Source: Saprospiraceae bacterium (GTDB lineage: Bacteria > Bacteroidota > Bacteroidia > Chitinophagales > Saprospiraceae). From it: a DNA stretch of 41,997 nt. Under the pieces are notes generated by a model that was not told the DNA's origin, did no database searches, and worked only from the letters and a program-made list of their open reading frames with translations. Within the stretch, counting starts at the first letter, position 1; each line of letters starts with the position of its first letter. Location of the stretch: NCBI GenBank assembly GCA_031373565.1, contig JANMMV010000697.1, positions 1 through 41,997 of the forward strand, given 5' to 3'. Below are positions 1,229 through 24,700 of the stretch, in pieces. The translations under genes and the position numbers were made by a program.

Positions 1229-1413
1229 TGTGTAAACTTAAAAAGATCGATGGATATTACATCTCGCAGACCAAAGGCGCTATCTAATGACCTTTTAAAC
1301 TGCAAGAATCGGTAAAAATAAAATCAAATATTGATTAAAAAATTGGACAGTTGATTACCATATTCCACTAGATAAAACACTTCTGTCACATTAATGTTTA
1401 TCTTGAAAGAATA

Positions 1414-1444
1414 AGAGCTGTTCAAATTTTTATTAAACAGCTCT
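1414..1444 (-). terminator. Hairpin terminator downstream of the 1514-2215 gene
   Basis: AGAGCTGTT (1414-1422) pairs with AACAGCTCT (1436-1444) as a 9-bp stem with a 13-nt loop. The minus-strand 3' flank is T-rich (ttattctttc). Confidence 0.5.
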
Positions 1445-1513
1445 TTTCAATATTAACTAATTTTTAAAAATAAGATATTCAAAAGGCGGGAAGACCACGT
1501 TCACTTTTCTTAA

Positions 1514-2215: not shown

Positions 2216-2353
2216 TGATAAATTATTTAATGAATTATAAAAAATGGTTTAATAAATCTAGATAGGTCGGGGTATGAATCTTGGTAATTATGCTTATATT
2301 TCTATATTTCATAATGCTAGATTCATCCAAAAATGAATATAGGGTTGATATGA

Positions 2354-3571: not shown

Positions 3572-3636
3572 TTTATTATTGTTTAGGATCTGAAAATATG
3601 TTAATTGATTATAATTTTTCAAAGTATGTTACATGT

Positions 3637-4875: not shown

Positions 4876-5077
4876 GATATAAAGGTATTTTCGAATTAAT
4901 GTTTGTAATTATATTGCAAAGGTGGAGTCTTTTGGATAGGTGTACAATAGCTAAATATAGACATATATAATTGGGTACACTGATAGCAATCAGATGCTTA
5001 GGCATATAAGTGTGCAACAACCCAAAGCAGGCATTCCTATGAAAAAATGACAAATAGCTTGTCTAGATAGTAGTAAA

Positions 5078-9333: not shown

Positions 9334-9492
9334 CGCGGGTTATGTACGGGTTATGTACGAGTTGTATACGGGTTGTGTACGAGTTGTGTACGAGTTGTAT
9401 ACGGGTGAGCTACGGGTTGCATACGGGTTGCATACGGGTGAACTACGGGTGAGCTACGGGGCAACGTCGGGACAACGTCGGGACAACCTCGG
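9334..9492. repeat. Tandem array of 14 complete 11-bp units plus one partial unit, consensus TACGGGTTGTG, in strict register with no indels
   Basis: I parsed the units by hand; unit starts are at 9334, 9345, 9356 ... 9477, 9488. CG at unit positions 3-4 and G at position 6 are invariant. The variable tail drifts from TTATG to TTGTG/TTGTA, then TGAGC/TTGCA, then ACAAC along the array. Confidence 0.9.
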
Positions 9493-9885: not shown

Positions 9886-11043
9886 TCACTTTATTCTATT
9901 GTATTTTTTTAACAAATCTATGACTAATTTATGCGGGAGACCATAAGCTTTGTTTCCATTAATGCCTTCCATAGTTTCAGCCGCAACCATAGCATTAATA
10001 ATGGCTTCTTCAACCGCCTGCACAGTCGCATCAAATAAAGGGTTGATTAAATCATTGGGCAATTCGGCCAATTTTGTGAAATTTTCTCGCTGAAAAGCGG
10101 ATGGGTTTGCAGTGGAAAATGCAATAAAAATATCACCGGAACCGTTTTCACCACGGCCTCCAACGATACCTATTCCCAATGGAACTCTTGTGGCAATTCT
10201 TTTAAGTTGATGGGGCAGTAAAGGAGCATCAGTAGCCACTACTACTATAATGGAACCATCTCCTAATTGATAAGATGGCGGAGCTTTAAATTCGTAGTTC
10301 ATCGTATCTTTTAATTCCTTTCCGATAGGAACACCGGCAATTGTAAAATTCTTTTTACCTCCAAAATTTGATTGTACCAAAACCCCAACCGTGTAAGTAG
10401 AGTCTTTAACTTTTACAACTCTAGAAGAAGTACCTGTGCCACCCTTAAAGCCCAAACACATCATTCCTGTGCCGCCACCCACATTTCCTTCTTGTAAATA
10501 TCCCGGTTTGGCACTGTCTAGTGCTTCATAAGCATTTTCTTCCTTTACATGGAAACCATAAATATCATTTAAAAAACCATCATAGGTTTCTGCTACCACA
10601 GGATAGGTGTACCAAAAGTCTTCATTGTACCAGCCCGTTTTCACATACCATTTTAACACGGCATCCCTTACCACACCCACGCTGTTGGTATTGGTTATCA
10701 TAATGGGGCCTTCTAGAAACCCTGATTCTGTTATCCACGTGGTGCCTGTCATTTCGCCGTTGCCATTTAACGAATACCAATTGGCAAAAACGGGGTTGTT
10801 GTTTCTGCCCCTCGGCAATATAGCTGTAACACCTGTTCTGATGGGTCCTTTACCTCTTACGTTTTGGCCTTGGCCTGCAATAATAGTACTATATCCAACT
10901 TCCACACCTTTGACATCGGTTATGGCATTATATTTACCAGTAGTACCGTTGAACGGAATTCCGATGTCTCGGGCCCTGGGATTTTGGGATAAAACGGCAA
11001 AAGGGATGAGGATAAAGAGCAGGAAAATGTTATTTCTTCTCAT
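9886..11043 (-). CDS. Secreted DmpA/BapA-type aminopeptidase (peptidase family S58 / P1)
   Basis: Start taken at MRRNNIFLLFILIPFAVLSQ (signal peptide); the ORF is open to 11103. Family hallmarks: ITDVKGVEVGYSTI, GVTAILP, GGGTGMMCLGFKGGTGTSSR and IIVVVATDAPL. Confidence 0.8.
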   Translation of the reverse strand: MRRNNIFLLFILIPFAVLSQNPRARDIGIPFNGTTGKYNAITDVKGVEVGYSTIIAGQGQNVRGKGPIRTGVTAILPRGRNNNPVFANWYSLNGNGEMTGTTWITESGFLEGPIMITNTNSVGVVRDAVLKWYVKTGWYNEDFWYTYPVVAETYDGFLNDIYGFHVKEENAYEALDSAKPGYLQEGNVGGGTGMMCLGFKGGTGTSSRVVKVKDSTYTVGVLVQSNFGGKKNFTIAGVPIGKELKDTMNYEFKAPPSYQLGDGSIIVVVATDAPLLPHQLKRIATRVPLGIGIVGGRGENGSGDIFIAFSTANPSAFQRENFTKLAELPNDLINPLFDATVQAVEEAIINAMVAAETMEGINGNKAYGLPHKLVIDLLKKYNRIK

Positions 11044-11121
11044 TTGGATAATTGATTTTTTGATTAAAAAATTGAAAAAATATTGATTGGTAGCAATGGG
11101 CAATTCAGTTAGGTTGATTTT

Positions 11122-11571
11122 TTAACTTCGTTTGATTAACGTTGAGTGAAGGTGTTTTACCTTCCACCTTTTTTTTTCTTTTGCTAAAATTGCGGTTTCC
11201 AGCCAATGCACCGTTGCTTGATTTCCGTCCTTGGTTATTGCTGAACTAAGCCGATACGTAACCCATGCCGTTTTTTTATCTGTTCTGGTTTTGATGAAAT
11301 CAAAAGTATTGGTACGCTTAAAATCTGTTGCCTTATTCATTGTGATTGCTTTCTTGATAAGCGAATCTAAATTCCATACCTGTCCATATTCGTACAAGGA
11401 GATATCAGTGGTAGAATAAGTTTTCAGGCTGACTGAATCATGGTTCGAGATAGCTTCAAAAAAATTCACCACAGTATATTTTGCATCTTGCTGGTCTTTG
11501 GTAGAAGTTTGCTGGGCTAGCAACAAAGTTGAAACAGAAGTAAGAATGATGAAAAGGGATTCTTTTTTCAT
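11122..11571 (-). CDS. Small secreted NTF2-fold protein (SnoaL/DUF4440-like)
   Basis: 149 aa with signal peptide MKKESLFIILTSVSTLLLAQ. The overall pattern (VVNFFEAISNHDSVSLKTY...AWVTYRLS...HWLETAILAKEKKRWKVKHLHST) is typical of the NTF2-like cone fold. Confidence 0.55.
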   Translation of the reverse strand: MKKESLFIILTSVSTLLLAQQTSTKDQQDAKYTVVNFFEAISNHDSVSLKTYSTTDISLYEYGQVWNLDSLIKKAITMNKATDFKRTNTFDFIKTRTDKKTAWVTYRLSSAITKDGNQATVHWLETAILAKEKKRWKVKHLHSTLIKRS

Positions 11572-11738
11572 TTTTGAATTTGTTTTTTCGTTAAAAAATT
11601 AGGTCTTTTCATCCCATATTTACTTGATAGTTGGCGCATCTACTACAATAATGAGCCGATTACATGTTTTATACCGCTCAATATGTAAATAGTGGCGAAT
11701 GTGCTTTATTTTACAAACAAATCTACCACCATTTTTCT

Positions 11739-13259
11739 TTATGAGCTTGTCTCTCTGTCTAATACTTCAAGAACTTTATTGTAATAATCAGTGGCACTTT
11801 CCATCGTTCTTCCGATACTTACTAGACCTAATTTGCCATATTGAGATAATGCACTAATCAGGTGGAACATAACTCCTTCTTCTTTTGAATTGTCATAGTG
11901 TAAGCCATTGTACATAGCAATATCTATAAGATCTAGCGGAGTCAAACCTTTATATTGATCGTTCTGTAGATTATCGGTTGCAAAATAAAATCTTTCCGTT
12001 CCGTCTGGTAGAATAAATGAGCCATTACTTTCGTCATATACACCATTAGTGAGAAACTGCAACATAAGGTATGGATGCGTAGTCCCCCCTTTTCTGAGAT
12101 TTATTTCAATAGCATAATGCGTCCAAACATCGTTTTTAAGCACACTCATAAAGTCAATTCCAAATCTACCCAAGACGCCCAGAGATGACATTTTGGTGGC
12201 TATTTCCCGGCAAATATTGCCCAATTCTACGGCATAATCTTTGTTAGCAGGAAATGTGGCTCCCAAAAATACCTGACCGCTTTCTCCGCCTAGACATTGA
12301 TCGTGGGTAGAGATGATGCATATTTCTCCCAATGGATCAATTCTGCATTGCACAGACGGTGATGTAAGGATCTCGCCGACAATAAATTCTTCGACAATAC
12401 CGCCAAAACTAATAAATTTCTTTAGATACTGGTCGTATCTAACATTTTCCGCTACAATTTTAGTTTTCAGGATGATATTTTCTCTTACCCACGACTCCAG
12501 TATCGATGGATCAGCAGGAGCTCCATCGTAGGAAAAGATGGCATTGCCATCACCCGAAAATCCATCATTAATTTTGATTACAGCCTTGTGGACGTGGGGG
12601 TTTTCAACTTTTAAATGATACAATGCTTTTATGATATCATCTTCATTTTCAAGGTATTCTATTCCTTTCGGGAGAAGGATGTTTAATTCCTTAAATAAAG
12701 TTCTGCAGCCGCTTTTTGTACCTAAATAATTTAAAGCGGGATCGCATCCATAAATCGGTAGATTTAAATTTAGCGCTAGTGTTTTTTCAAATTCTGTTAC
12801 ATTAAAAAATACAAGATGTGCTGGATATTCAGCAGGAATACTCTTTTTTATCCTCTGTATGAGTCTCGGACGTTTTAATATTTTTTCAGTTAATGATACA
12901 TTTCCTGCATCATAACAACTCAGTAATGTTAAACGTTTTCTGGCATGCTCAGCTATGATACCAGGTAGCATATGCAAATAATAGTCTATGATGATGGGTG
13001 CTATGGGAACACTAGTGATAAAGGTGAGAAAAGTTTCTGGCATTTTCAGTAATAACAACATACACAACATTCTCTCTTCGTAGTAATAATGACCTTTCAC
13101 CCTAGATAGAATTTGCTGGTCCAGTGTAAGGCTCGGAATTACTACAACGGCACGTCGCGCCAGCCTATCATTGAAAACTTCTGCATACTGTTCAGCAAGC
13201 GCATCCTGCAATTCTTCAAATCTGCGATCAGAAGCATTTGTTAAATTATATTCCATCAT
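11739..13259 (-). CDS. PGM1-like ATP-grasp protein (pre-ATP-grasp + ATP-grasp; putative carboxylate-amine/peptide ligase)
   Basis: VVVIPSLTLDQQIL...YEERMLCMLLLLKMP...IIIDYYLHMLPGIIAEHARKRLTLLS...GTKSGCRTLFKE matches, from memory, the conserved cyanobacterial/Bacteroidota family related to the pheganomycin peptide ligase PGM1. Confidence 0.65.
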   Translation of the reverse strand: MMEYNLTNASDRRFEELQDALAEQYAEVFNDRLARRAVVVIPSLTLDQQILSRVKGHYYYEERMLCMLLLLKMPETFLTFITSVPIAPIIIDYYLHMLPGIIAEHARKRLTLLSCYDAGNVSLTEKILKRPRLIQRIKKSIPAEYPAHLVFFNVTEFEKTLALNLNLPIYGCDPALNYLGTKSGCRTLFKELNILLPKGIEYLENEDDIIKALYHLKVENPHVHKAVIKINDGFSGDGNAIFSYDGAPADPSILESWVRENIILKTKIVAENVRYDQYLKKFISFGGIVEEFIVGEILTSPSVQCRIDPLGEICIISTHDQCLGGESGQVFLGATFPANKDYAVELGNICREIATKMSSLGVLGRFGIDFMSVLKNDVWTHYAIEINLRKGGTTHPYLMLQFLTNGVYDESNGSFILPDGTERFYFATDNLQNDQYKGLTPLDLIDIAMYNGLHYDNSKEEGVMFHLISALSQYGKLGLVSIGRTMESATDYYNKVLEVLDRETSS

Positions 13260-13508
13260 ACTAAAAAATTTTAGTAAAATTAGACAAAATTATTAAATAC
13301 AAGATGATCTCAATCATTTCTGATGTTGATAAAGATTAGATCGACATTATCACTGTTTCAACAACAAAGCGCAGGAGTACCAAAGATGTATTTAGTTCCT
13401 TTTCGTGATAATATTTTTTAATTGAAAATCAAGATGCCCGCATTGCTATATCACAAAAGCAAGTTGATCTGCAAATTTGGCTCATGTTACTTCTCAATGT
13501 ATTTTATT

Positions 13509-13536
13509 GCCTACTCAGATCGGTTTTCGCTTACCC
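13509..13536 (-). repeat. Copy 3 (most diverged) of a ~28-nt intergenic motif AAGC(C)GAAAACC....GAGTAGGC
   Basis: The minus strand reads GGGTAAGCGAAAACCGATCTGAGTAGGC. It lies about 250 nt upstream of the ATP-grasp start codon. Confidence 0.4.
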
Positions 13537-13798
13537 GTGTTGTTATTTCTTTTTCCAGCCCAAAACAATTTCTGTACTCAGCAGTGCTATCGCCCATGAT
13601 AACCAAACCATGGTTGTACCTTTCTCTCTTCAAAAGTACTTATCATCAGATGCGCTATTGGTAAATCAACAAGCCAACAAAAATTAACAAAAGCAAATGT
13701 GAATACGATTGCCGTGCGCACGGGTTTCTGCAAGCCCCGCGTTTTGTTATTTAATTAAAAAAAATGAGAGAGTACAGAGAATGTATTTTCTCATTTTT

Positions 13799-13830
13799 AA
13801 AAAGGAAGAGCCTGCTGCTAGACTCTTCCT
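13799..13830 (-). terminator. Rho-independent terminator of the 13961-14704 gene
   Basis: AGGAAGAG (13803-13810) pairs with CTCTTCCT (13823-13830) as an 8-bp stem with a 12-nt loop. A T5 run follows on the minus strand (A-run 13799-13803 on +). Confidence 0.55.
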
Positions 13831-13960
13831 TTATGGTTTTTGAATAGGAATTATGCGGTACGTTTTTGAGAAAACGTCATGTTTAGTCTATTTTGATAAA
13901 TCTCCCCACCCGGCATAAAGTCCTTGATGGAGAGATATTATACTAACAAAACAATTATCT

Positions 13961-14704
13961 TTATTTAGAACTTAAGTCCTTACGCATGAATAAAAGTTCG
14001 CTCCAGCTGTCGTTGATGTACTCGCTAGCATTGTCTAGGTACTCTTCCCATGATCCTTCGCCATTGACTGACTCATAGGTACCTTTGAATGGTTTGCGAT
14101 ATCCTACTGCTTTCTCTTTTAATCCTTGTTGAAATCTTCTGGTAAGTGTGTATTGTCCAGGACCTGATGCATTAGATGCATAAACGGCCATCGTTATGTT
14201 ATCAGCTTTCCAAGCTTTTCTCAATTCTTTAAGCATTTGTTCGACTTTATAGTCTTTGCCAAGCTTAGGATAGATATGCGTTATCTGGATTTTCTCCGTA
14301 AACGCACCCAGTGCTACCGTACTAAGAGAGTCTTGGTACACAGAATATCCAGCTGAACTCCTATCTGTCAAGTGGATAGCTACGTTTTTGTGCCAGTCCA
14401 TCATGTGCTCAGCCCCTAGATCGCCTCTCGTGTCTTCAGCAGCCCAGCTAGTAGGGCCCTCGGTGATATGATATCCACCTGCGTCGGGACCAGATTGGAT
14501 TTGGAATACTCGCCAATGATGTTCACCAGTGTGATACTTTTGGGCATGTGCTGCGAGTGCTTTTTCAAATTCCATCACTTTGTCCACTTTGGGAAAAATT
14601 CTCTGTGTGGAAATGACGTTTTTTACCTGTCCGAAGCCTATGATAGGAAGCATCAAAAGAATAAAAAGAAGGTTTTTGGTTTTTAAACTAAAATTGGTTT
14701 TCAT
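13961..14704 (-). CDS. Secreted hypothetical protein, two-lobed, possibly distantly related to the two paralogs upstream
   Basis: 247 aa with signal peptide MKTNFSLKTKNLLFILLMLPIIGFGQ. The layout is two halves of about 100 aa (beta strand, then an amphipathic helix such as KVMEFEKALAAHAQKY and YKVEQMLKELRKAWKA). I recognise no family. Confidence 0.7.
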   Translation of the reverse strand: MKTNFSLKTKNLLFILLMLPIIGFGQVKNVISTQRIFPKVDKVMEFEKALAAHAQKYHTGEHHWRVFQIQSGPDAGGYHITEGPTSWAAEDTRGDLGAEHMMDWHKNVAIHLTDRSSAGYSVYQDSLSTVALGAFTEKIQITHIYPKLGKDYKVEQMLKELRKAWKADNITMAVYASNASGPGQYTLTRRFQQGLKEKAVGYRKPFKGTYESVNGEGSWEEYLDNASEYINDSWSELLFMRKDLSSK

Positions 14705-14727
14705 AATAAAAGATTTTTTGGTGTAAT

Positions 14728-14757
14728 GCCTACTCTAATAAGGTTTTCGGCTTCGCC
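14728..14757 (-). repeat. Copy 1 of the ~28-nt intergenic motif
   Basis: The minus strand reads GGCGAAGCCGAAAACCTTATTAGAGTAGGC and ends 23 nt before the ATG at 14704. Confidence 0.5.
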
Positions 14758-14810
14758 TGGGTATTAAGAATAGTTGCTTGAGATAACACAAAGCATATAT
14801 TTTATATTTT

Positions 14811-15605
14811 TTAGTCTGTTATATCTACTAGCTCCCATACTTCTTGAGAAACCATATCTCTCAGTTCATTCAACTTAGTGGTAAAATTGGCGATATCATC
14901 CTTAGGATATACTTTTTTGTACTCATCTCCCATACCTGTTTTTCCACTTGCCCATGACAATGCCTGGTCTACGGTAGTAAAGGTAAAGCTAACTGAATAG
15001 TTACTTTCACTGATATTGGTAGCATAGGTTCGTTTCCATACATTAAATCCTTTTAGTTCCCCTGCTTTTATACACTCTTCAAGCACTGGCTTCAAAGTTT
15101 CCAATAATTTTTCATAAGCTGCACCGCTGCCCTTTTTGACATCTAAAAGATTTATTTGCACATATTCGCCTGGAATAATCTTAGCTCCAACACCCCACTT
15201 ATAGGTATAAAGATCGGTGGCTACAGTAGTTCTTACATTGTTCAATGATGTAAAAAAGTCAGATGCTTCCTTCACACTCATTGCTTTGAAACCTGTATCC
15301 CAAGTACCTTCTGCTTTCATTTCGATACCGCTAGGAAATACTGAAAGCGTAGCATAATTAAAATCCATACTGCTACCTCGTGGATATGTTCTACGGTATA
15401 GCTGCCACGAATTGATGGTCTTATTAGCAACTCTTGCATCTGCAAGCTTTCTTGATGTTTTCATGTCGATCAGAAAACTCTCATTCATATTGGGTAAAGT
15501 TTTGATATAATTTACTTCACCATAAGGGCCTTGTGCTTGACACTCGTTGAAAGAAAACAATGTAGTTAAGGCAACTACCATGATTGTTAAAGAAAATGTC
15601 TTCAT
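14811..15605 (-). CDS. Secreted protein of unknown function, paralog A
   Basis: Start taken at MKTFSLTIMVVALTTLFSFNECQAQ. The track ORF extends to 15764, but that extension reads through the conserved operator repeats. It aligns end to end with the 15898-16707 product, e.g. IKTLPNMNESFLIDMKTS.KLA..RVANK.INSWQLYRR and the C-terminal DEYKKV.PKDDIA......ELRD.VSQ...ELVDITD. Confidence 0.8.
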   Translation of the reverse strand: MKTFSLTIMVVALTTLFSFNECQAQGPYGEVNYIKTLPNMNESFLIDMKTSRKLADARVANKTINSWQLYRRTYPRGSSMDFNYATLSVFPSGIEMKAEGTWDTGFKAMSVKEASDFFTSLNNVRTTVATDLYTYKWGVGAKIIPGEYVQINLLDVKKGSGAAYEKLLETLKPVLEECIKAGELKGFNVWKRTYATNISESNYSVSFTFTTVDQALSWASGKTGMGDEYKKVYPKDDIANFTTKLNELRDMVSQEVWELVDITD

Positions 15606-15674
15606 TGTAAAAGATTTTTTTTGTTGGTTAAATAATGATTGTTTATTAAGTTTATTTTTGAGTAATTGATAATA

Positions 15675-15770
15675 CAAAGGTATGGGCAGAACAAGGATTG
15701 GAGATAGTAGAAATCTCGCAAAATATAGGAGAAATCTCGCATTCTTACCGTAAATTCTGAGCATTTTCGG
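15675..15770 (-). promoter_or_regulatory. Promoter/operator module A (leftward -7 box plus phased direct repeats)
   Basis: CAAAGGTA at 15675-15682 is TACCTTTG (TAnnTTTG) on the minus strand. GAAATCTCGCA occurs at 15710-15720 and again at 15731-15741, 21 nt start to start. A related AAATTCTGAGCA ends at 15763. Confidence 0.6.
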
Positions 15771-15832
15771 TTAATTTCGATGTTGATGATAGTTTTTAGC
15801 CTTTACAGAATAAAAGAACGTAAAAAGCTAAC

Positions 15833-15875
15833 AAAAAAAAACTGTCAGGTTTCACCTTATGGCAAAACCTGACAG
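15833..15875 (-). terminator. Strong rho-independent terminator of the 15898-16707 gene
   Basis: CTGTCAGGTTT (15842-15852) pairs with AAACCTGACAG (15865-15875) as an 11-bp stem. It is followed on the minus strand by a T9 run (A-run 15833-15841 on +). Confidence 0.8.
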
Positions 15876-15897
15876 CTAACAAAACATGGTATGATTC

Positions 15898-16707
15898 TTA
15901 ATCCGTAATATCCACCAATTCATAAAGCCCTTGCGATACTACATCTCTCAGTTCACTAAACTTGGCACTCCAAATAGCTATGTCATCCTTAGGAAATACT
16001 TTTTTGTACTCATCTCTCACATTAGTTTTTCCACTTGCCCATGATAATGCTTGGTCTAAGGTAGCAAAGCTAAAACTAACAAAATAATCAATTTCTCCAT
16101 TGACATTAGTCTTATAGGTGCGTTCCCAAACATTGAATCCTTTTAGCTTTCCAGCTTTTATAGCCTCTTCAAGCACAAGCTTATAAGATTCCAATTGTTT
16201 TTCATAGTCTGCACCCTTTCCAGTTTTTACATTGTTACTGTTTATTTGTACGTATTCGCCAGGTAGCATCTTAGATCCAACACCCATTTTGTAAGTTATA
16301 CAATCATTGGCTACTACTGTCCTTGTATTGCCAACGGATGTGTAGAAATCAGCAATATCTTTTGCACTCATTCCTTTGATGACAGCATCATTGGCGCCTT
16401 CTGCTTTCATTTCTACTCCACTTGGATATACCGCAAGGGTAAAATAATTATGATCCATACTGCTACCCGTTGGCATTGCTCTGCGATATAGTTGCCAAGA
16501 ATTGATGTTCTTATTCGCAACTCTTCCATTGGCCAATTTCTTTGATGTTTTCATGTCTATCAGAAAACTCTCATTCATGTTTGGTAAAGTTTTTATAAAA
16601 CTTACTATACCATAAGGGGCAGGTGCTGTTTGGGCTTTGATAATAGCCGATGTTGAAAATAAGGCAATGATGATTACCAATGTTGAAAGAAATTTGTTAA
16701 TTTTCAT
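15898..16707 (-). CDS. Secreted protein of unknown function, paralog B
   Basis: 269 aa with signal peptide MKINKFLSTLVIIIALFSTSAIIKAQ. By eye roughly two thirds identical to paralog A over its full length. Confidence 0.85.
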   Translation of the reverse strand: MKINKFLSTLVIIIALFSTSAIIKAQTAPAPYGIVSFIKTLPNMNESFLIDMKTSKKLANGRVANKNINSWQLYRRAMPTGSSMDHNYFTLAVYPSGVEMKAEGANDAVIKGMSAKDIADFYTSVGNTRTVVANDCITYKMGVGSKMLPGEYVQINSNNVKTGKGADYEKQLESYKLVLEEAIKAGKLKGFNVWERTYKTNVNGEIDYFVSFSFATLDQALSWASGKTNVRDEYKKVFPKDDIAIWSAKFSELRDVVSQGLYELVDITD

Positions 16708-16774
16708 TTTAAAAAAATTTTGTTGGTTAAATAATGATAGATATTTATGTTTAATATTTGAAAAATTGATACTG

Positions 16775-16891
16775 CAAAGATAAAGGCGAGACCTTCCACG
16801 TAGCTAAGACGTTTCTCGCAAAAAACCATACATTTCTCGCATTCAAACCGTAATTTCTGAGCATATACCGTAAATTCTGAGCATTTTGCGG
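16775..16891 (-). promoter_or_regulatory. Promoter/operator module B, between paralog B and hybrid sensor 1
   Basis: CAAAGATA at 16775-16782 is TATCTTTG on the minus strand. CGTTTCTCGCA is at 16810-16820 and CATTTCTCGCA at 16831-16841 (21-nt phase). The 20-nt unit ACCGTAA(T/A)TTCTGAGCAT is tandemly duplicated at 16847-16886. Confidence 0.6.
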
Positions 16892-16956
16892 CGCGTTAAT
16901 CATTTTTGGTTCCTTTTTTGGTAATATTTCACTTTAACTTGATGTATCTTTAGTTC

Positions 16957-19900
16957 ATGATCTTTCGTCCCACATATCTCAAATCCCTTGCTCGTTGTAT
17001 TACCATATTCACAATGTTGATCAGCGGTACTACATTCGGTCAGTTCAAATACGAAACCCTATCCACTGCCCAGGGTCTCTCCCAAGGGTATATCTGGGAC
17101 ATCTTACAGTGTAAGGATGGTTTCCTCTGGATGACTACCAAAGCTGGACTCAATCGCTATGACGGTTACTCATTCAAAGTATACAGCCACGACGCTTTTG
17201 ACCCATATTCTATTACGAGCAACAATATTTTATTTCTTTATGAAGATAGTAAAGGTCGCATTTGGATCGGCAGTGATCATGGACTCAATATTTTCAACAA
17301 AAAAACAGAAAGATTTTACAAGCTGTATCACGATGCTAAAAATCCAAATAGCCTTAGCGGCAATGTAGCAGATGATCAAATCACAGAACTCTCTGACGGT
17401 CGTTTTTTAATCAATACGTCTAATATAACCTTTGATATAGTCACCCTTCCAGAAGATTTTTTCGAGGATGAAGGTGGTATAAAAATTGAACACATCAATA
17501 AACCCAAAAATTCCTTTAACGCTGCTAATTACTATAATGAAGTAACATACACCGATTCAAAAAATATTACATGGTACAAATGTGATAATAACCTATACCG
17601 TTTTAATGCGAAAACTGACCAATTCGAATTGCAAAAAGTAGACAACGTGTCGGGTAACCAAATTATAAAAAATGAAGATGGTAGTGTTTGGTTTGGTGAT
17701 GAATATATAAGTTTGTTTGACGGCATCAATGTTTACCCAACATTTACCAAGCCTATGTTTAACGGTCATACAGGATATGTTTTAACGGAAGACAATGGAA
17801 GGTTGTGGCGGTCTAATAACAATCTTGGTTTCCTTGAGATTTTTGATATCTCTACGTGGCAAAAAGGCAAACCAATCGACCCTGAAAAGCATATCATTGC
17901 TAGCGATCAAAATGTTTATTGTAACAAAATATTTAAAGACAGAACCGGCTTGGTTTGGTTAGGTCTCAATGGCTTTGGCGTGCGGAAATATTCGTTTGAA
18001 TCCGAAAAATTCAACCACATCGCTCCAAATAAAAGTATCAGAAAAATCATTGCAGATCCCCAAAACAACCTGCATGTACATGCATGGTACGGACATTTTA
18101 AGATCGATACGAAAGGTAATTTGACAGACAATATCTGGGAGTTTAAACGCGGACTATCACTAGATTATTTTATTGCCAAAACTGGGGATCTATGGTTGAC
18201 TGAAAGAACGGATGTCAATTCAAAAACGATTACTTCATTACAACAAATCAACCCTACCACAAAACTAAGCAAAATCTATACATTTGATCTCGAAGGTAAT
18301 TACGACTATCCACAACATATTATTGAAGATCAGAATGGTCGATTGTGGTTTGGAGGATTGAATGGATATTATTTAGTTTTTGATCCAAAAAGTGGTACTT
18401 ACAAAGAATACAACACCAAAAAAAATACTCCCACAACGACGCAATATAATGACCATAATGGTATTGTATGGATGGGTACTATGGAAGGATTTGCAAAAAT
18501 TGAGTCTAAAAATATTTTAACTACGGCTCCTAAAATTACATGGTATAGCAATGACCCAAATAATAAAACCTCGCTTAATAGTAATAATATAAGCACCTTT
18601 CTTGACGATCCTGTAGATCATGATTTATTGTGGATAGGTACCAAAGGCGGTGGCCTCAATCTCATGGAAAAATCATCAGGCAAGATCAGACATATTACTG
18701 TGAATCAAGGCTTGTGTGACAATACCGTTTATGGCATTTTGGATGACGAAAAAGGCAATATCTGGGGAAGTACCAATAATGGCCTTTTCTGTATATTGAA
18801 TAGTGCCAATCGCAAAAGCAATTTTGAAATCCGACACTTTACTGAAGCAGCAGGACTTCAAGCGGCTGAGTTCAATACAGATGCCTATGCTAAGCTACCT
18901 AACGGCCACCTGGCCTTCGGAGGCATCAATGGAATTAATGTTTTCGACCCAAAAGAAATTTTGATTGATACCATTATGCCCAATATATTTATTACAAAAC
19001 TCATCGTGGGCAATCAAGTTATAAAACCCTTTGATAATAGTAATATCCTTTTCCAAGCCATCGAATTTACACCATCCATTACCTTGAATCATATTCAGGA
19101 TGTATTTACCATCGAGTTTTCGTCTTTGGATTTCAGAGCGCCTGAACAAATAAAATACAGGTACAAACTAGATGGTATTGACGAAGATTGGTTGGAAATA
19201 GGCAAAAGAAGAAGTGTCACTTATTCCCACTTGCCAGCTGGTTCTTACACGTTCAAAGTACAAGGCAGCAATAGCTTAGGAATATGGAATGATAAAGTCA
19301 GAGCATTAAAGATCATAATTTTGCCTCCATGGTATGCATCATGGTATGCCTATTTATTTTATGTGATATTACTTGGCTTAGGTATTCGAGCATATTACAG
19401 ATATAAACTCGAGCAGAACAAAATGGCAACTCAACTGCAATTTGAACAAAACGAAAACCATCGTGTCAAAGAACTCGATAAGGTCAAAACGGATCTATAC
19501 ACTAATATCACTCATGAATTTAGAACGCCACTAACAGTTATCCTAGGTATGGTGCAGCACATAAGGCGTTCCGCCGCCGATCACTTAGACAACGGTTTGG
19601 ACATGATCGAACGAAACGGCAATAATCTTTTGCGGTTGGTAAATGAAATGTTGGATTTATCAAAGCTGGAAGCGGGCAAAATGGAATTAAATCTTACACA
19701 AGGTGATGTGATTAATTTTATCAGATATATTGTAGAGTCATTCCATTCGGTGGCAGAAAGTCAAGACAAAAAAATGCATTATCTCTCTTCAATCGACACG
19801 ATGTACGCACAATATGATCAAGAGAAAATACGACAGATCGTATCCAATTTACTATCCAATGCATTGAAATTTACATCCAAAAAAGGAGACATTTATCTAT

Positions 19901-21066
19901 CCATTTCCCAAGAAAACAAGAATCAGCTCTGTATCAAAGTCAAAGATACAGGCCGTGGTATACCTGAAAGCCAGCAACACCATATTTTTGATAGATTCTA
20001 CCAAGCTGACAGTACACACACCCGACACGCTGAAGGTACTGGCATAGGACTTGCATTGACTAAAGAACTGGTACAACTCATGGCCGGACACATTTCAGTC
20101 AAAAGCCCACCAACAGGATCAAAAAAAGGTACAGAGTTTACAGTCATCTTACCACTAGAGATCATCACAGATTATATCGAAGATGAAACCATCCAAAAGG
20201 CTTTTGTAGTTAAATCAAAGATAGACGATAACGATCCATTTAGGCATATTGATTTTCAAAACCAAACTAACCCAGATAAAGAACTGATCCTATTGGTAGA
20301 AGATAACGCTGACGTAGTGGCATACACTGCTAGCTGTCTTCAAGATTACCGATTGGCAGTGGGTAAAGACGGTCAGGAAGGTTTGGATATAGCACGTGAT
20401 CTAGTTCCTGATCTAATCATTACAGATGTCATGATGCCATTTATGGATGGTTTTGAAATGACACGAAACCTGCGTATTGATGTGCGTACCAGCCATATTC
20501 CTATTATCATGCTTACAGCCAAAGCGGATATGGACTCTAAACTCGAAGGCATAGATTATGGTGCAGAAGTTTATCTCGAAAAACCATTTAATGTCGACGA
20601 ACTTAAGTTGCGAGTGCGCAAATTACTAGACCAAAGGATGATCTTGCAAAATGCCTATGCTTCCAAGTTGGGGCTACAAACTTTGTCAAAAGAAATTACC
20701 AATAACGAAGAAAAGACTAATTATGATGATATTGTATTGCCTCAGGTAGAAAATGCATTTGTTAAAAAGGTAACATTAGAGATAGAAGCGCACCTATCCG
20801 ATGAAAGTTTCAGTGTAGAGCAACTTGCTAGAAGTCTATTTATGTCTTATTCACAATTGCAACGGAAACTCAATGCGCTCATTGGCATGCCACCCAATCA
20901 ATTTATACGACACTTGCGCCTCCAAAAGTCTAAAGAGCTCTTAAGTACAACGGAGGATACGATCCTTAACATTTCGATGAATTGCGGTTTCAGCGATCCG
21001 AGTTACTTCGCCAAAGTTTTCAAACAAGAATTTGGCATCACACCCCAGGATTGGAGAAATGGGTGA
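16957..21066 (+). CDS. Hybrid two-component system sensor/regulator 1: periplasmic beta-propeller repeats + Y_Y_Y, TM, HisKA, HATPase_c, REC, AraC-type HTH
   Basis: Y_Y_Y region YRYKLDGIDEDWLEIGKRRSVTYSHLPAGSYTFKVQG. TM segment WYAYLFYVILLGLGI. H-box ITHEFRTPLTVILGM. REC motifs LLVEDNADV...IITDVMMPFMDGFEM...MLTAKA. AraC HTH CGFSDPSYFAKVFKQEFGITPQDW. Confidence 0.9.
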   Translation: MIFRPTYLKSLARCITIFTMLISGTTFGQFKYETLSTAQGLSQGYIWDILQCKDGFLWMTTKAGLNRYDGYSFKVYSHDAFDPYSITSNNILFLYEDSKGRIWIGSDHGLNIFNKKTERFYKLYHDAKNPNSLSGNVADDQITELSDGRFLINTSNITFDIVTLPEDFFEDEGGIKIEHINKPKNSFNAANYYNEVTYTDSKNITWYKCDNNLYRFNAKTDQFELQKVDNVSGNQIIKNEDGSVWFGDEYISLFDGINVYPTFTKPMFNGHTGYVLTEDNGRLWRSNNNLGFLEIFDISTWQKGKPIDPEKHIIASDQNVYCNKIFKDRTGLVWLGLNGFGVRKYSFESEKFNHIAPNKSIRKIIADPQNNLHVHAWYGHFKIDTKGNLTDNIWEFKRGLSLDYFIAKTGDLWLTERTDVNSKTITSLQQINPTTKLSKIYTFDLEGNYDYPQHIIEDQNGRLWFGGLNGYYLVFDPKSGTYKEYNTKKNTPTTTQYNDHNGIVWMGTMEGFAKIESKNILTTAPKITWYSNDPNNKTSLNSNNISTFLDDPVDHDLLWIGTKGGGLNLMEKSSGKIRHITVNQGLCDNTVYGILDDEKGNIWGSTNNGLFCILNSANRKSNFEIRHFTEAAGLQAAEFNTDAYAKLPNGHLAFGGINGINVFDPKEILIDTIMPNIFITKLIVGNQVIKPFDNSNILFQAIEFTPSITLNHIQDVFTIEFSSLDFRAPEQIKYRYKLDGIDEDWLEIGKRRSVTYSHLPAGSYTFKVQGSNSLGIWNDKVRALKIIILPPWYASWYAYLFYVILLGLGIRAYYRYKLEQNKMATQLQFEQNENHRVKELDKVKTDLYTNITHEFRTPLTVILGMVQHIRRSAADHLDNGLDMIERNGNNLLRLVNEMLDLSKLEAGKMELNLTQGDVINFIRYIVESFHSVAESQDKKMHYLSSIDTMYAQYDQEKIRQIVSNLLSNALKFTSKKGDIYLSISQENKNQLCIKVKDTGRGIPESQQHHIFDRFYQADSTHTRHAEGTGIGLALTKELVQLMAGHISVKSPPTGSKKGTEFTVILPLEIITDYIEDETIQKAFVVKSKIDDNDPFRHIDFQNQTNPDKELILLVEDNADVVAYTASCLQDYRLAVGKDGQEGLDIARDLVPDLIITDVMMPFMDGFEMTRNLRIDVRTSHIPIIMLTAKADMDSKLEGIDYGAEVYLEKPFNVDELKLRVRKLLDQRMILQNAYASKLGLQTLSKEITNNEEKTNYDDIVLPQVENAFVKKVTLEIEAHLSDESFSVEQLARSLFMSYSQLQRKLNALIGMPPNQFIRHLRLQKSKELLSTTEDTILNISMNCGFSDPSYFAKVFKQEFGITPQDWRNG

Positions 21067-21477
21067 TAGGTAAAGCATGTAGGATAGAATGTTTAGGGTT
21101 TGTAATATCTGAAGTAGGTACTAGAATGATTTCCTACAGGAAATAACTCCACGGCTGACTGGTATAGAAAGGTTTTGTGAATAGCAAATCCATTTTAGAA
21201 AGTACCTATTTTGTGAAGGGTGTAATAGGCATACTTCTGCCAAAGCCAATGCTGTTGTTGAATAAAAAATAAGGGACTGTTAATATTGATAAACCACTGA
21301 CAATAATGGCATTAGCATCTTTTGATAATCAAGAAAATAACGAAGGTAAATAGTTGTGCAATTCAGCAAGGGCAACACCTACTAATAATCCGTCCAATCG
21401 GCAATATTTAGGATCATAGATTGTTTGTATCCATAACGCCCTGTTTTCTATTCCGGAACTTTGCTGGATGTGTTACG

Positions 21478-21507
21478 TCTACTCTAACAAGGTTTTCGGC
21501 TTTCACT
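21478..21507 (-). repeat. Copy 2 of the ~28-nt intergenic motif, here with no gene downstream
   Basis: The minus strand reads GTGAAAGCCGAAAACCTTGTTAGAGTAGAC, 25 of 30 positions identical to copy 1. Confidence 0.5.
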
Positions 21508-21564
21508 ATGATTGATGAAAACTTGAAATTTTTCTGATCCAATTATTTGATACAATGGATGTTG

Positions 21565-21659
21565 CAAAGTAAAGGTCAAAACAAGGGTGGGAGATAGGAG
21601 AAATATCGTATAATATAGGCGAAATCTCGCTTTTTACAGTAAAATCTGATCGTTTTCAG
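21565..21659 (-). promoter_or_regulatory. Promoter/operator module C (orphan), upstream of hybrid sensor 2
   Basis: CAAAGTAA at 21565-21572 is TTACTTTG on the minus strand, so the TA of the -7 box is altered. GAAATATCGTA is at 21600-21610 and GAAATCTCGCT at 21621-21631 (21-nt phase). ACAGTAAAATCTGATCGTTTTCAG is at 21636-21659. The box-to-repeat spacing is 35 nt, the same as in modules A and B. Confidence 0.55.
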
Positions 21660-21723
21660 ATCTCAGTATGAAAAAGACAAACTTTAAACTAAGACTTTGG
21701 TGTCCTTTCTCTATTTTTACCCT

Positions 21724-24700
21724 ATGAATATTTTCCCAAAGAATATCAGCTCTTTTCGATTCATTTGGTTGGCACTATGGATACTATGTAGTCATATGAG
21801 TTATGGCCAATTGAAGTATGAGACACTCACTACTTCAGATGGATTGTCGCAAGGTATGGTATTTGATATTTTACAAGATAAGGAAGGATTTATTTGGATA
21901 GCCACTAAAGATGGATTAAACAGGTATGATGGCTATGAGTTTAAAGTATTTTCAAATGACCCATATAATGATCAAAGTCTAAGTAGCAATACTATTTCAA
22001 GATTATTTGAAGATAGCAAAGGTAGGATTTGGGCTACTACTGAAAATGCTGGCTTAAATATCTATGATAAAATTAAAGGTGTTTTTTACAGGTTGCAAAA
22101 TAGTTTGACCAACACTAATAGTATATCTGGAAATAATATTAGAGCGATAGAAGAATTGCCAGATGGCAGGATGTTGATAGCGACAGTTGGTCGTGGAATA
22201 AATATTGTTACTTTAACAGAAGAGTTTTTTAGTAAAGGTTCTTCCCCGCTTATTATTAAACTTAACATGCCTAATAATAGTGAAGTATATGGCATTGGTA
22301 AAGATAAAAATGATAGAGTCGTCATTGGAGCTATGGATGGCACGACATATGAACTGGACTATAAGAATTTGAGCTTCATCCCGATTAACAATGGAAAATT
22401 ATATAATAATGGCTACCTAACAGAGGAGGGAAGTGTCATCATCAATAACAACCTATTTTTGGATGATGGCAATAGCATAATGCCTTTATTTGATACAGAT
22501 AAATTACCAGAAGGTAATATTATATTCAGACCAAATGAGACCCTTTGGGATTTACATCATAGGGAACAACATTTTTACGATATCAGTAGGTGGGAAAATG
22601 GTATACCCCTAAGTTGGAAAGAAAAACTTCCTATTGAAAAAAATACAAGAATCATTTATCCATTCATTATTGATAGGTCAGGGATTTTGTGGGCTGGCAC
22701 CGTCGGCTATGGTCTTAGGAAATACAAGATCAAAAAAAGCATATTTAGAACTTTAGCTAGAGGAAATAGCATCAGACTGATCAAACCTTATTCTGAAAGT
22801 GAAATATATTGTGTCGACTACGGATATCCTTGGTTGAAGTTAAAAGCGGATAATGTAGTGGATGTCAATGCATTTAGTAAAATTCCATCGGTGAGCCAGA
22901 TAGACAATATTCTTGTTTCAAAAACAAAAGATATTTACATAAAAAGCGACAAAAAAGGTTATTTTAAATATACACCTACGACCAATACACTTGTAGAACT
23001 TCCAAATATAAATGCAAAGCAGACATTCGGTAAAAAACAACCATTTATAGAGGATAAACGTGCTTCTGTGTGGTTTCCTGGCTTAGATGGTCAGATTACT
23101 TTGTTTGATCCAATCACGCAAAAATCAGATAGTTTTAATATAAATCAAAGTGGTGACAAAATCATCATTACGGCGCTGCTCGAAGATAAAAATGAAACTT
23201 TTTGGATTGGTACGGAAACTGGTTTTGCAAAAGTTAATTTAAAACGAGATAATATTTCATCTTCTGTTGTAAGGTGGTACAATAACGACTTTAAAAACAG
23301 AAATTCACTTAGCTATGATCATGTGACTTCTTTTTTAGATGATCCAAATGAACCTCAAACATATTTATGGATATCTACAAAAGGTGGTGGAATTAATCGT
23401 TTAAATAAATTGACTGGGGATTTCTTGCACCTTTCCACTAAAGATGGCTTACCAGATAATGTGGTTTATGGCTTGCTTGATGACCAATCAGGAAATATTT
23501 GGGGTAGCACCAATAAAGGAATTTTTTGCACGCTTATTCAAAAAAATAAGCCTAACCTTGAAATTAGTTTTCGTAATTTTACGAAGAGAGAAGAACTTCA
23601 GGATGATGAATTTAATACAGGTGCATTTGCAAAACTACCCAACGGAAACTTAGCTTTTGGAGGTGTCAATGGATTGAACGTTTTTAATCCTAAAGATGTA
23701 TTACAATCTAGTTTTATACCAAATGTCTTTATTACAAAAATTCTTGTAGAAAATAATATTGTCTTACCAAATGATAATACAGGTGTTCTTAGTGAAAATA
23801 TTGAAAAAGCGAAATCCATTACATTAACCCATTTACAAGACATCCTCACTCTTGAATTTGCATCATTAGATTTTTCTAACCCTTTACAAAACAAATATCG
23901 TTATCAGCTCATAGGTATAGATAAGGACTGGATCCTAAGTAACACTCGTCGTTCTGCAACATATTTACATCTTCCTGAAGGAAATTATGTTTTCAAAGTG
24001 CAAGGTAGTAACAGTGAAGGTATTTGGAGCGAAAATGTAGCAGCTTTGCAAATCAATATTTTGCCGCCATGGTGGAAGACTTGGTGGGCTTATCTCTCAT
24101 ATACCTTACTATTTGGCTTTTTGATAAGAACGTATCTACAATATAGGTTAAATCAATCCAAAATAGAGTCGCAATTGATCGTTGAACAAAATGAAGCTAG
24201 GCGAATCAAAGAACTGGATAATATAAAAACGCAGCTTTACACCAATATCACCCATGAATTCCGTACGCCATTGACTGTAATCTTGGGTATGGTGCAGCAA
24301 ATAAAAGGCGCACCAAAAGAACATTTAGAGAACGGTCTCGAGATGATCGATCGTAATGGTAGAAACTTACTAGATCTTGTTAACGAGATGCTCGATCTGT
24401 CAAAACTCGAAGCAGGCAAAATGGAGTTACATATGGTGGGTGGCGATGTCATCCATTTTTTGAGATATATCGTAGAGTCATTTCACTCGATGGCCGAAAG
24501 CCAAAACAAAAAAATGCATTATCTTTCTTCATTAGATACTTTGCACACAGCTTATGATACGGAAAAATTACGCCAAATTCTTTCCAATCTTCTGTCAAAT
24601 GCGTTAAAATTTACACCAGAAAAAGGAGATATTTACATTTCAATTGGTACTGTAGATCGGCATAACGCTGAGAATAAAAAAATACTTGTCATCAAGATCA

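Follow-up and report, generated by a model that had tools for sequence, protein, structure and literature searches.

Phased direct repeats beside two hybrid two-component sensors of a Saprospiraceae bacterium: a candidate operator for AraC-type domains

Direct repeats averaging 21 bp apart were predicted in 2013 as the motifs of hybrid two-component sensors (HTCSs; RegPrecise motifs of Ravcheev et al., PMC3878776), and in the literature searched HTCS sites have been defined only for the polysaccharide utilization loci (PULs) of gut Bacteroides. The window analyzed here, a 41,997-nucleotide stretch of DNA from a Saprospiraceae bacterium (contig JANMMV010000697.1), contains two HTCS genes and three intergenic regions, A (15675-15770), B (16775-16891), and C (21565-21659). 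Each region has a leftward Bacteroidota -7 box (the reverse complement of CAAAGnnA) and, upstream of that box, three to four direct half-sites that recur every 20-22 bp. Are these arrays the operator through which the sensors control the leftward genes? A sequence-only reading had proposed them as a candidate operator of the adjoining AraC-type sensors at leftward promoters of secreted-protein genes, and four lines of comparison now favor that proposal: co-occurrence with sensor orthologs, phase lock to the promoter, conservation of the sites, and replacement of the motif where a TPR-AraC regulator takes the place of the sensor. We consider it probable that the arrays form an operator at which the HTCS AraC domains act as activators. 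The setting is not a PUL. In a survey covering all ORFs but three at 39155-41870, neither a SusC/SusD pair nor carbohydrate-active enzymes adjoin the sensors, and the neighborhood consists of genes for family-less secreted proteins, an ATP-grasp protein, a SnoaL-like protein, an S58 peptidase, an IS110 transposase, and housekeeping functions.

The sensor genes and their own -7-type boxes are positioned as follows:
16957..21066, plus strand: gene of HTCS1 (hybrid two-component sensor 1), 1369 aa
21724..25836, plus strand: gene of HTCS2 (hybrid two-component sensor 2), 1370 aa from the ATG at 21724
16945..16952, plus strand: -7-type box of the HTCS1 gene, TATCTTTA, exactly 4 nt before the ATG
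21712-21719, plus strand: equivalent -7-type box of the HTCS2 gene

Both proteins consist of a Reg_prop/Y_Y_Y sensor, HisKA, HATPase, and REC domains, and a C-terminal AraC HTH_18 domain; all seven Pfam families exceed the gathering score in both, which gives each the domain set of an HTCS. The S/CHIP latch motif, conserved in the receiver alpha3-beta4 loop of HTCSs (PMC11253607), is present in both translations as RTSHIPIIMLTAK. The sensors are ~50% identical overall, ~39% in the sensor domain and 63-65% in the DNA-binding domain (DBD). The HTCS1 mRNA is predicted to be leaderless.

Leftward of the arrays, on the minus strand, are the putative targets:
14811..15605, minus strand: gene A, a 264-aa secreted protein without a Pfam family, assigned to promoter A
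15898..16707, minus strand: gene B, a 269-aa secreted paralog, assigned to promoter B
15840..15877, minus strand: intrinsic terminator of gene B, a 17-bp stem and a T run
13961..14704, minus strand: gene of a 247-aa secreted protein, downstream of gene A

The terminator makes A and B separate transcription units, and the 247-aa gene is probably in one operon with gene A. Gene B is predicted to encode a tandem ferredoxin-like (dimeric alpha+beta barrel) domain pair.

The promoters and arrays have the following components:
15675..15682, minus strand: promoter A -7 box, TACCTTTG, perfect TAnnTTTG (plus strand CAAAGGTA at 15675)
15703..15763, plus strand: array A, three direct half-sites, TCT starts 21 and 21 nt apart
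15703-15720, plus strand: half-site A1, GATAGTAGAAATCTCGCA
15724-15741, plus strand: half-site A2, TATAGGAGAAATCTCGCA
15746-15763, plus strand: half-site A3, TACCGTAAATTCTGAGCA
16775..16782, minus strand: promoter B -7 box, TATCTTTG, perfect TAnnTTTG (plus strand CAAAGATA at 16775)
16804..16883, plus strand: array B, four direct half-sites, TCT starts 21, 21, and 20 nt apart
16804-16820, 16825-16841, 16846-16863, and 16866-16883, plus strand: half-sites B1, B2, B3, and B4
21565..21572, minus strand: promoter C -7-like box, TTACTTTG, one mismatch to TAnnTTTG (plus strand CAAAGTAA at 21565)
21593..21652, plus strand: array C, three half-sites, two of them degenerate, spacing about 21
21593-21610, plus strand: half-site C1, ..AATATCGTA
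21614-21631, plus strand: half-site C2, ..AATCTCGCT
21635-21652, plus strand: half-site C3, TACAGTAAAATCTGATCG

The sequence-only reading had located this architecture correctly: boxes at 15675, 16775, and 21565, an 11-mer 35 nt after the C of each (15710, 16810, and 21600), a second 11-mer 21 nt further on (15731, 16831, and 21621), and in region B a duplicated third element, whose fourth copy lies 20 nt on at 16876. The unit itself is not the 11-mer, but a 17-18-bp half-site, (A/T)ACCGTAAWWTCTGAGCA or ..ACATTTCTCGCA, and in A, B, and C alike the half-site centers are ~21 bp apart, as in HTCS operators. The third element (TCTGAGCA at 15756 and 16856, TCTGATCG in region C) had been regarded as merely related to the others; far from being accessory, the TCTGAGCA element is the best conserved unit of the arrays. 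Half-site A3 reaches the maximum score (32.8 bits) on a matrix built without any A sites, and C3 attains only 12.2 bits on the distal-site matrix. Promoter and array C look partly decayed and vestigial.

The TAnnTTTG consensus of Bacteroidota sigma-A promoters occupies -12 to -5 (PMC9723704). Boxes A and B match it perfectly, as had been claimed, but box C is imperfect; the position of the box is fixed in orthologs. From the boxes, transcription is predicted to start at ~15670 in promoter A, so that the leader would run 65 nt up to the gene A ATG at 15605, and at ~16770 in promoter B, with a leader of 63 nt before the ATG at 16707. The boxes lie about 65-70 nt from the ATG, rather than ~60 nt as first estimated. 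Relative to its predicted leftward start, array A would span about -33 to -93. No -33 TTTG element is present at the expected place in these promoters, where the proximal half-site sits instead; this is as expected of an activator-dependent promoter, and the -33 motif is not universal among Bacteroidota sigma-A promoters.

Chance is excluded as the source of the phased repeats. In the window, TCTCGCA-N14-TCTCGCA has two exact matches versus 0.10 expected, and there are two phased TCT(C/GA)GCA clusters (of three and four members) versus 0.003 expected, which take up seven of the eight plus-strand matches to that motif. Tandem Repeats Finder independently detects a period-20 array at 16823-16885. 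Two-unit clusters of the looser motif TYT-N1-2-GCA occur only at chance level in the window and related loci, so only arrays of at least three units are meaningful; a sigma-70 promoter scan was uninformative (32 matches versus 28.8 expected). Regions A, B, and C are paralogous copies and thus not three independent observations: A is 81% identical to C over 94 nt, matching it over the array, and A and B have in common the leader TTTTGTTGGTTAAATAATGAT (15619-15639 and 16719-16739), a likeness already pointed out in the earlier reading.

Each of the nine distinct HTCS1 orthologs (68-89% identity; Saprospiraceae metagenome loci L023, L025, L027, L036, L030, L034, L031, L003, and L006) is accompanied by the array in the intergenic region shared with its divergent neighbor. 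Three HTCS2 orthologs (65-70% identity) have four to five units of a related motif (ATAGTAAAAATCAnGCA), and at the nine HTCS1 and three HTCS2 loci the motif lies upstream of the genes adjoining the sensor. The genes behind the HTCS1-ortholog arrays vary (a gene-A ortholog, an S9 peptidase gene with gene A, the 247-aa gene with gene A, or a RibD_C gene), and the arrays are conserved in spite of this variety. Orthologs of gene A (88-93% identity) are the usual divergent neighbors of sensor-1 orthologs, and in L030 and L040 an ortholog of the 247-aa gene comes first after the array. Across 523 kb of related loci, arrays of at least three units are found only beside HTCS1 orthologs. The exact site-2/site-3 composite occurs at only two loci in a scan of the metagenome collection, and both are intergenic regions of this kind.

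In the orthologous alignment, mean pairwise identity rises from 0.72 and 0.81 at sites 1 and 2 to 0.88 and 0.92 at sites 3 and 4, compared with 0.52-0.62 in the flanks; the closest orthologs are highly similar, so part of this conservation is inherited rather than selected. The -7 box is kept, conservation is lowest (0.52) in the spacer that separates the box from the array, a CTGCAAAGnTA block is conserved in eight of nine sensor-1-type promoters, and A-type -7 boxes are conserved in related loci. Register was compared over 15 rows, comprising 14 promoters reached via HTCS orthologs of two clades and promoter A of the window. The first 21-nt unit begins 23 nt from the G of the box in all rows except L034, in which it is shifted, and L031 (68% identity), in which only the distal pair is clean and the third site is out of phase. 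Small ORFs overlapping the arrays (16751-16903 and 15602-15742, both on the minus strand) were rejected as coding because the orthologous alignments have 1-2-nt indels inside them.

Among orthologs of gene B, the closest (79-88% identity) adjoin a TPR-AraC regulator (585 aa, with an N-terminal HTH_18; loci L016, L019, and L022), and their 21-nt triple repeat is a different one that keeps the register. These loci resemble the window in the target family, in the order of box, 15 nt, and three 21-nt units, and in that conservation is higher in the distal units than in the proximal one. They differ in regulator architecture, in an unrelated half-site sequence (CTTAGTACATTGTTGC), and in a co-directional regulator gene with a terminator between regulator and target. 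Because the repeat differs where gene-B orthologs adjoin TPR-AraC, the motif tracks the regulator and not the target. This replacement bears on the possibility that the arrays are a true operator bound by another factor, such as an OmpR-type or another AraC-type regulator encoded elsewhere, with a merely positional link to the HTCSs. OmpR-family regulators also use direct repeats, and an OmpR-type two-component pair lies just past the gene-A ortholog in L023, L024, and L035; however, neither the window nor most of the orthologous loci contain the pair, the HTCS is the sole regulator common to every array-bearing locus, and the motif switches when the neighboring regulator does. We regard an operator for another factor as unlikely.

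Equally improbable is an array serving chiefly the sensor genes, through autoregulation or by repressing the rightward HTCS promoters, with the leftward genes incidental. Arrays B and C do lie upstream of HTCS1 and HTCS2, the units nearest the HTCS gene are the best conserved, and BT4124 of Bacteroides represses its targets. Yet array A has no rightward gene and lies directly downstream of a terminator; the register is locked to the leftward -7 box rather than to the HTCS start, the stretch between array and HTCS being variable (identity 0.52-0.57); and the HTCS -7 box is at least 60 nt from the nearest unit, which points the opposite way. The arrays may nevertheless serve both directions. A residue of recent segmental promoter duplication, leaving repeats without sequence-specific function, would fit the mosaic paralogy of the regions (A like C over the array, A like B over the leader) and is very improbable, since the internal 21-bp periodicity needs a separate explanation, conservation of the sites exceeds that of the flanks even between loci with HTCS proteins just 68-78% identical, and the unrelated repeat of the TPR-AraC loci has the same geometry.

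On the preferred reading of the arrays as HTCS operators, array B is provisionally assigned to HTCS1 and arrays A and C to HTCS2. Array B is of the sensor-1 type; A and C appear closest to the HTCS2-ortholog arrays, which they resemble in the 5' half (ATAGTAGAAAT). The core of the HTCS2-ortholog motif is TCACGCA or TCAAGCA, versus TCTCGCA, and the A/C assignment rests on these three orthologs and partly on the proximal-site matrix trained on HTCS1 loci, which does not recover A1, A2, C1, and C2, whose 5' halves differ. Since cores are shared, HTCS1 and HTCS2 may cross-regulate, and with unlike periplasmic domains two signals could enter one small secreted-protein regulon. Near-identical AraC helix-turn-helix units had been put forward as grounds for a common operator. 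The quoted helix motifs turn out to be family-wide in HTCSs and so carry little weight alone for shared specificity, but both HTCS2 recognition helices are found identically in HTCS1 orthologs that keep the operator.

Each region would thus be a leftward, activator-dependent sigma-A promoter preceded by three to four tandem half-sites with ~21 bp, or two helical turns, between them. A half-site would comprise two conserved patches separated by roughly one turn, (A/C)CGTA or AGTA and TCT(C/GA)GCA, a structure that would fit one AraC-type domain with two helix-turn-helix units. The membrane-anchored hybrid sensors would be dimers, and phosphorylation would release their C-terminal AraC domains, which would then fill half-sites in pairs along a single face of the DNA. 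The distal sites, which are well conserved, may act as anchors. The proximal site is more degenerate and spans about -33 to -50, where the -33 TTTG is absent; it would be filled on activation, and its occupancy could recruit RNA polymerase in the manner of araI1-I2. In the Proteobacteria, araI1-I2 of AraC and the class II sites of the XylS, RhaS, and MelR type consist of ~17-bp direct half-sites 21 bp apart from center to center, of which the stronger is distal and the weaker is proximal, abutting or overlapping the upstream promoter element. In contrast to those sites, the promoters here have the Bacteroidota sigma-A -7 TAnnTTTG rather than -10/-35 elements, the regulator is an inner-membrane hybrid kinase rather than a soluble ligand-binding protein, and there are three to four units rather than two.

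The HTCS operators of Bacteroides thetaiotaomicron are alike in the regulator (Reg_prop/Y_Y_Y, HisKA, HATPase, REC with a SHIP latch, and AraC HTH_18), in direct half-sites ~21 bp apart in promoters adjoining the HTCS gene, and in having no more than two sites per promoter, each made of two half-sites. At the bt4114 and bt4108 promoters, the BT4124 footprint covers two sites, each of two half-sites, 21-22 bp apart (JBC 2026; PMC13292587). BT4124, the only footprinted HTCS, acted as a repressor in the published assay (PMC13292587), whereas the position of the arrays upstream of -33 suggests activation here, a direction assumed from site position only. B. thetaiotaomicron belongs to the Bacteroidales, whereas the window and its relatives are Saprospiraceae of the Chitinophagales with a clade-specific half-site sequence, and the targets here are small secreted proteins of predicted tandem ferredoxin-like fold, with an S9 peptidase in relatives, and no SusC/SusD or glycoside hydrolase genes. 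Paralogous HTCS pairs with common motifs are known (BT4111/BT4124 and BT4178/BT4182; PMC3878776). Like them, this locus has two HTCS genes with related DBDs and a proposed common, or nearly common, direct-repeat motif; unlike them, it has sensors only ~50% identical (39% in the sensor domain), arrays that differ in the 5' half of the half-site, and a seemingly vestigial array C.

The layout is already published for Bacteroides HTCSs, so these arrays add a case, here outside a PUL, and leave the known picture of HTCS DNA recognition unchanged. They provide a concrete operator proposal for an environmental Bacteroidota HTCS clade, with half-site consensus, unit number, and position relative to the -7 box, and the comparison indicates that the motif goes with the regulator and not with the target. 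One promoter geometry used by two AraC-type regulators could aid regulon prediction in uncultured Bacteroidota and the design of inducible promoters. A wider reading is conceivable, though we would sooner doubt than expect it. A fixed-register AraC rule may govern Bacteroidota sigma-A promoters (21-bp units 23 nt from the -7 G, a proximal unit replacing the -33 element, and distal anchors) and be used interchangeably by HTCS and TPR-AraC regulators; promoter modules might be swapped between paralogs, rewiring regulators; and HTCSs outside the Bacteroidales might run a non-glycan regulon of secreted tandem ferredoxin-like proteins and peptidases, layered with DUF805b leaders, the sensor mRNAs being leaderless.

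Several minor features accompany the locus. A lone exact 14-mer, GAAATCTCGCAAAA (35785-35798, minus strand), has no second unit at 21 nt and a BLAST E value of 0.09 and was treated as chance, and TCTCGCA at 1262 was ignored as a single copy. Queries with the 247-aa, A, and B proteins and with the L040 and L037 neighbors found no decayed gene behind promoter C (21067-21480). Two RNA motifs lie on the minus strand:
14727..14760, minus strand: DUF805b-like RNA motif, leader of the 247-aa gene
21476-21509, minus strand: weaker DUF805b-like copy behind promoter C

These copies score 33.5 and 17.9 bits against DUF805b (Rfam RF02914), for which the gathering threshold is 35.6 bits; in L002, L003, and L010 the homologous leaders reach 36-43 bits.

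The repeat arrays in the three leftward promoter regions of the window are probably a further member of an operator type already known from the hybrid two-component sensors (HTCSs) of Bacteroides. Regions A (15675-15770), B (16775-16891) and C (21565-21659), whose coordinates in the sequence-only reading all proved correct on rechecking the sequence, open as follows:

15675, read on +, opening of region A (-7 box): CAAAGGTA
16775, read on +, opening of region B (-7 box): CAAAGATA
21565, read on +, opening of region C (-7 box): CAAAGTAA

The box of region C is imperfect. In each region a first 11-mer with TCTCGCA at its end (ATATCGTA in C) starts 35 nt after the first base of the box, a second starts 21 nt past the start of the first, and a third element, TCTGAGCA (TCTGATCG in C), follows another 21 nt on; region B holds an extra copy of the TCTGAGCA element 20 nt beyond the third. 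The 21-nt phasing claimed in the earlier reading holds, but the true unit is a half-site of 17-18 bp rather than the 11-mer, and the distance from box to ATG, put there at about 60 nt, measures 65-70 nt. With TAnnTTTG placed at -12 to -5, as in Bacteroidota promoters (PMC9723704), the half-sites are predicted to span about -33 to -50, -54 to -71 and -76 to -93 from the inferred transcription start sites, and in B also -96 to -113; no -33 TTTG element is present in these promoters.

The repeats far exceed chance. TCTCGCA-N14-TCTCGCA has two matches in 42 kb where 0.10 are expected. For TCT(C|GA)GCA there are two phased clusters, of three and four members, where 0.003 are expected; they take in seven of the eight plus-strand matches in the window. 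Tandem Repeats Finder independently reported a period-20 array at 16823-16885, and a matrix from the distal sites of HTCS1-type promoters finds only A3 (maximum score), B3, B4 and, weakly, C3 in the window.

The adjacent genes HTCS1 (16957-21066) and HTCS2 (21724-25836) are classical hybrid two-component systems, both encoding Reg_prop/Y_Y_Y, HisKA, HATPase, REC and HTH_18 domains and the SHIP latch motif known from the HTCSs of Bacteroides. Overall identity between the two is about 50% (periplasmic sensor 39%, REC 79%, DNA-binding domain 65%). The secreted, paralogous products of genes A (14811-15605) and B (15898-16707) belong to no Pfam family; the AlphaFold model of the gene B product (pLDDT 83.6) predicts a tandem ferredoxin-like (dimeric alpha+beta barrel) fold, nearest to the solved structures 2pgc, ABM-type monooxygenases and Cld/HemQ. 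One terminator separates gene B from promoter A:

15877-15840, terminator with a 17-bp stem

No SusC/SusD pair or CAZyme was found among the window neighbours of the arrays. The closest relatives are Saprospiraceae and Chitinophagales MAGs.

Within the window, A matches B over the leader, the leader and -7 box of promoter A (15619-15679) being 82% identical to those of B (16718-16779), and the A array (15675-15768) is 81% identical over 94 nt to that of C (21565-21657). Judged by these alignments, promoter A is a mosaic, B-like in leader and box and C-like in its array. As paralogous mosaics, A, B and C are not independent observations. The position held here by gene B, beside HTCS1, is normally taken by gene A orthologs in related loci, which together with the mosaic points to shuffling of promoter modules and genes within the locus.

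The earlier reading proposed seeking the repeats in related genomes, and the array is kept in the divergent intergenic region beside HTCS1 in all nine distinct ortholog loci fetched (68-89% identity). The order is CTGCAAAGnTA, a variable stretch of about 15 nt, then GGAGCTAAGACATTTCTCGCA, AAAAACCATACATTTCTCGCA, TTCATACCGTAAWWTCTGAGCA and TATACCGTAAATTCTGAGCA. The genes behind the array vary between loci:

L025, L036, L028: gene A ortholog
L023, L006: S9 peptidase and gene A
L030: 247-aa secreted-protein gene and gene A
L034: gene A/B-family homolog, about 60-63% identical to either
L031: RibD_C gene

In locus L003, S9 peptidase N-terminus fragments (8060-8700) lie between the array and the first intact gene, and an intact S9 peptidase lies further downstream (10993-13143); by sequence, the fragments look like a partial duplication or pseudogene.

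In the alignment of the HTCS1 ortholog promoters, sites 1-4, proximal to distal, average 0.72, 0.81, 0.88 and 0.92 in pairwise identity and the -7 box 0.79, with flanks at 0.52 (box-array spacer), 0.57 (towards the HTCS gene) and 0.62 (leader). Arrays of at least three units are confined to HTCS1-ortholog intergenic regions across 523 kb of fetched loci, and an exact scan of a metagenome collection for TCTCGC-N6-ACCGTAAWWTCTGAGCA returned two loci, both such regions. Mere duplication residue is a less likely account of the array similarity.

Three HTCS2 orthologs (65-70% identity; L037, L038, L040) have a CAAAG box followed by four to five tandem units, such as ATAGTAAAAATCACGCA and GATAGTAGAAATTGCGCA. 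Half-site A1 (GATAGTAGAAATCTCGCA) is almost identical to the proximal unit of L038, and the TCTCGCA core is common to arrays A, C and B; by this comparison A and C resemble the HTCS2 type in their 5' half, with the core as in B. Among 15 promoters (14 reached via HTCS orthologs of two clades, plus window A), the first 21-nt unit lies 23 nt from the G of the box, with the 21-nt phase kept, in 13, the exceptions being L034 (shifted) and L031.

Gene B's closest orthologs (79-88% identity; L016, L019, L022, L004) have no adjoining HTCS; their neighbour is a regulator of 585 aa that combines TPR repeats with an AraC HTH at its N-terminus. Their promoters hold three 21-nt units of unrelated sequence (AGAAACTTAGTAYATTGTTGC) in the same register to a TAACTTTG box, the proximal unit again being the most degenerate. 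These perfect-phase repeats (GCAACAATRTACTAAGTTTYT) stand directly upstream of the box:

L016 6433-6520
L019 9820-9910
L022 5540-5625
L004 1-60

They form a second, different candidate operator with the geometry of the HTCS promoters. Geometry is thus common to both and sequence changes with the regulator; the motif tracks the regulator, and gene B of the window would have been rewired to an HTCS-type promoter. Binding of the window arrays by another regulator is less likely.

The recognition-helix motifs cited earlier as evidence that both sensors use the arrays are present, but they are family-wide and prove little alone. More telling is that the first recognition helix of HTCS2 (SYSQVHRKL) is identical to that of P0097 and the second (DPSYFGKVFKQE) to that of P0101 and P0105, all HTCS1 orthologs retaining the operator. 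HTCS2's own orthologs deviate at helix positions (S[THQ]SQ and D[AV]SYFGKVFRQE), and the core of their arrays differs from that of the window. The shared helices suggest that HTCS1 and HTCS2 in this genome may recognise overlapping sites, as proposed for the BT4111/BT4124 and BT4178/BT4182 pairs (PMC3878776).

For 16 HTCSs of B. thetaiotaomicron, the motifs predicted by Ravcheev et al. are without exception direct repeats whose half-sites are spaced 21 bp on average (PMC3878776), and a 2026 footprint of BT4124 comprises two sites, each of two half-sites 21-22 bp apart (PMC13292587). The window arrays resemble these operators in all features tested; they differ in taxon, in half-site sequence, in lacking PUL context and probably in the sign of regulation. 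No paper defining HTCS sites outside Bacteroides was found in the searchable literature. The analysis shows the anatomy of the arrays, their conservation and their association with the HTCS genes; from these we infer HTCS binding and activation, most likely by a phosphorylated dimer whose two AraC domains would occupy adjacent half-sites on one DNA face. The well conserved distal units would serve as anchors, and it would fall to the weaker proximal unit, beside polymerase, to bring activation of the leftward promoter to completion.

The HTCS genes themselves, in 11 of the 14 sequences compared across two clades (12 of 14 if L040 starts at an upstream ATG), have a TAnnTTT(G/A) -7-type box that precedes the ATG by exactly 4 nt, against a chance rate of about 0.002 per position:

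window 16945-16952 and 21712-21719, +, HTCS gene -7-type boxes
L003, L006, L023, L025, L027, L030, L036, L037, L038, L040, equivalent boxes

This spacing predicts leaderless HTCS mRNAs, and the box at 21712-21719 moves the HTCS2 start from the ORF-finder TTG 21697 to ATG 21724. A role of the array mainly in autoregulation of the HTCS genes is less likely than activation of the leftward promoter.

A leader element that is conserved between loci, GCCGAAAACC-N4-5-AGAGTAGGCA, corresponds to the DUF805b RNA motif of Rfam (RF02914):

window 14727-14760, -, DUF805b-like, 33.5 bits against a threshold of 35.6
window 21476-21509, -, DUF805b-like, 17.9 bits against a threshold of 35.6
L002 8080-8112 and 9060-9092, L003 8805-8837 and 9946-9978, L010 3756-3788, DUF805b, 36-43 bits, above threshold

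It lies some 20-25 nt ahead of the start codon in various genes for secreted proteins, also between cistrons; the window copies are downstream of HTCS-type promoters. Behind promoter C (21067-21560, -), about 400 nt hold no ORF, and no trace of the 247-aa gene, gene A or gene B was detected there, an arrangement also seen in the HTCS2-ortholog locus L037 (3268-3680); this stretch represents the decayed start of an operon or else a non-coding transcript so far unrecognised. A 700-nt gene-free gap (13260-13960) between the 247-aa gene and an ATP-grasp gene contains a weak match to a related DUF805 RNA family (13504-13570, -; 25.9 bits, E 0.25).

Elsewhere, a tandem repeat of about 14 copies occupies 9336-9492, its unit being 11 nt long (CGGGTTGTGTA) or, in other readings, 22 or 33 nt; it lies between an IS110-family transposase gene (8038-9063) and the 3' end of an S58 peptidase gene. 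At the left of the window, there is a separate signalling module (590-7093, -), in which three family-less ORFs lie between the gene for a LuxR/GerE-type response regulator (590-1228) and that for a TPR-HisKA_3 histidine kinase (5078-7093).
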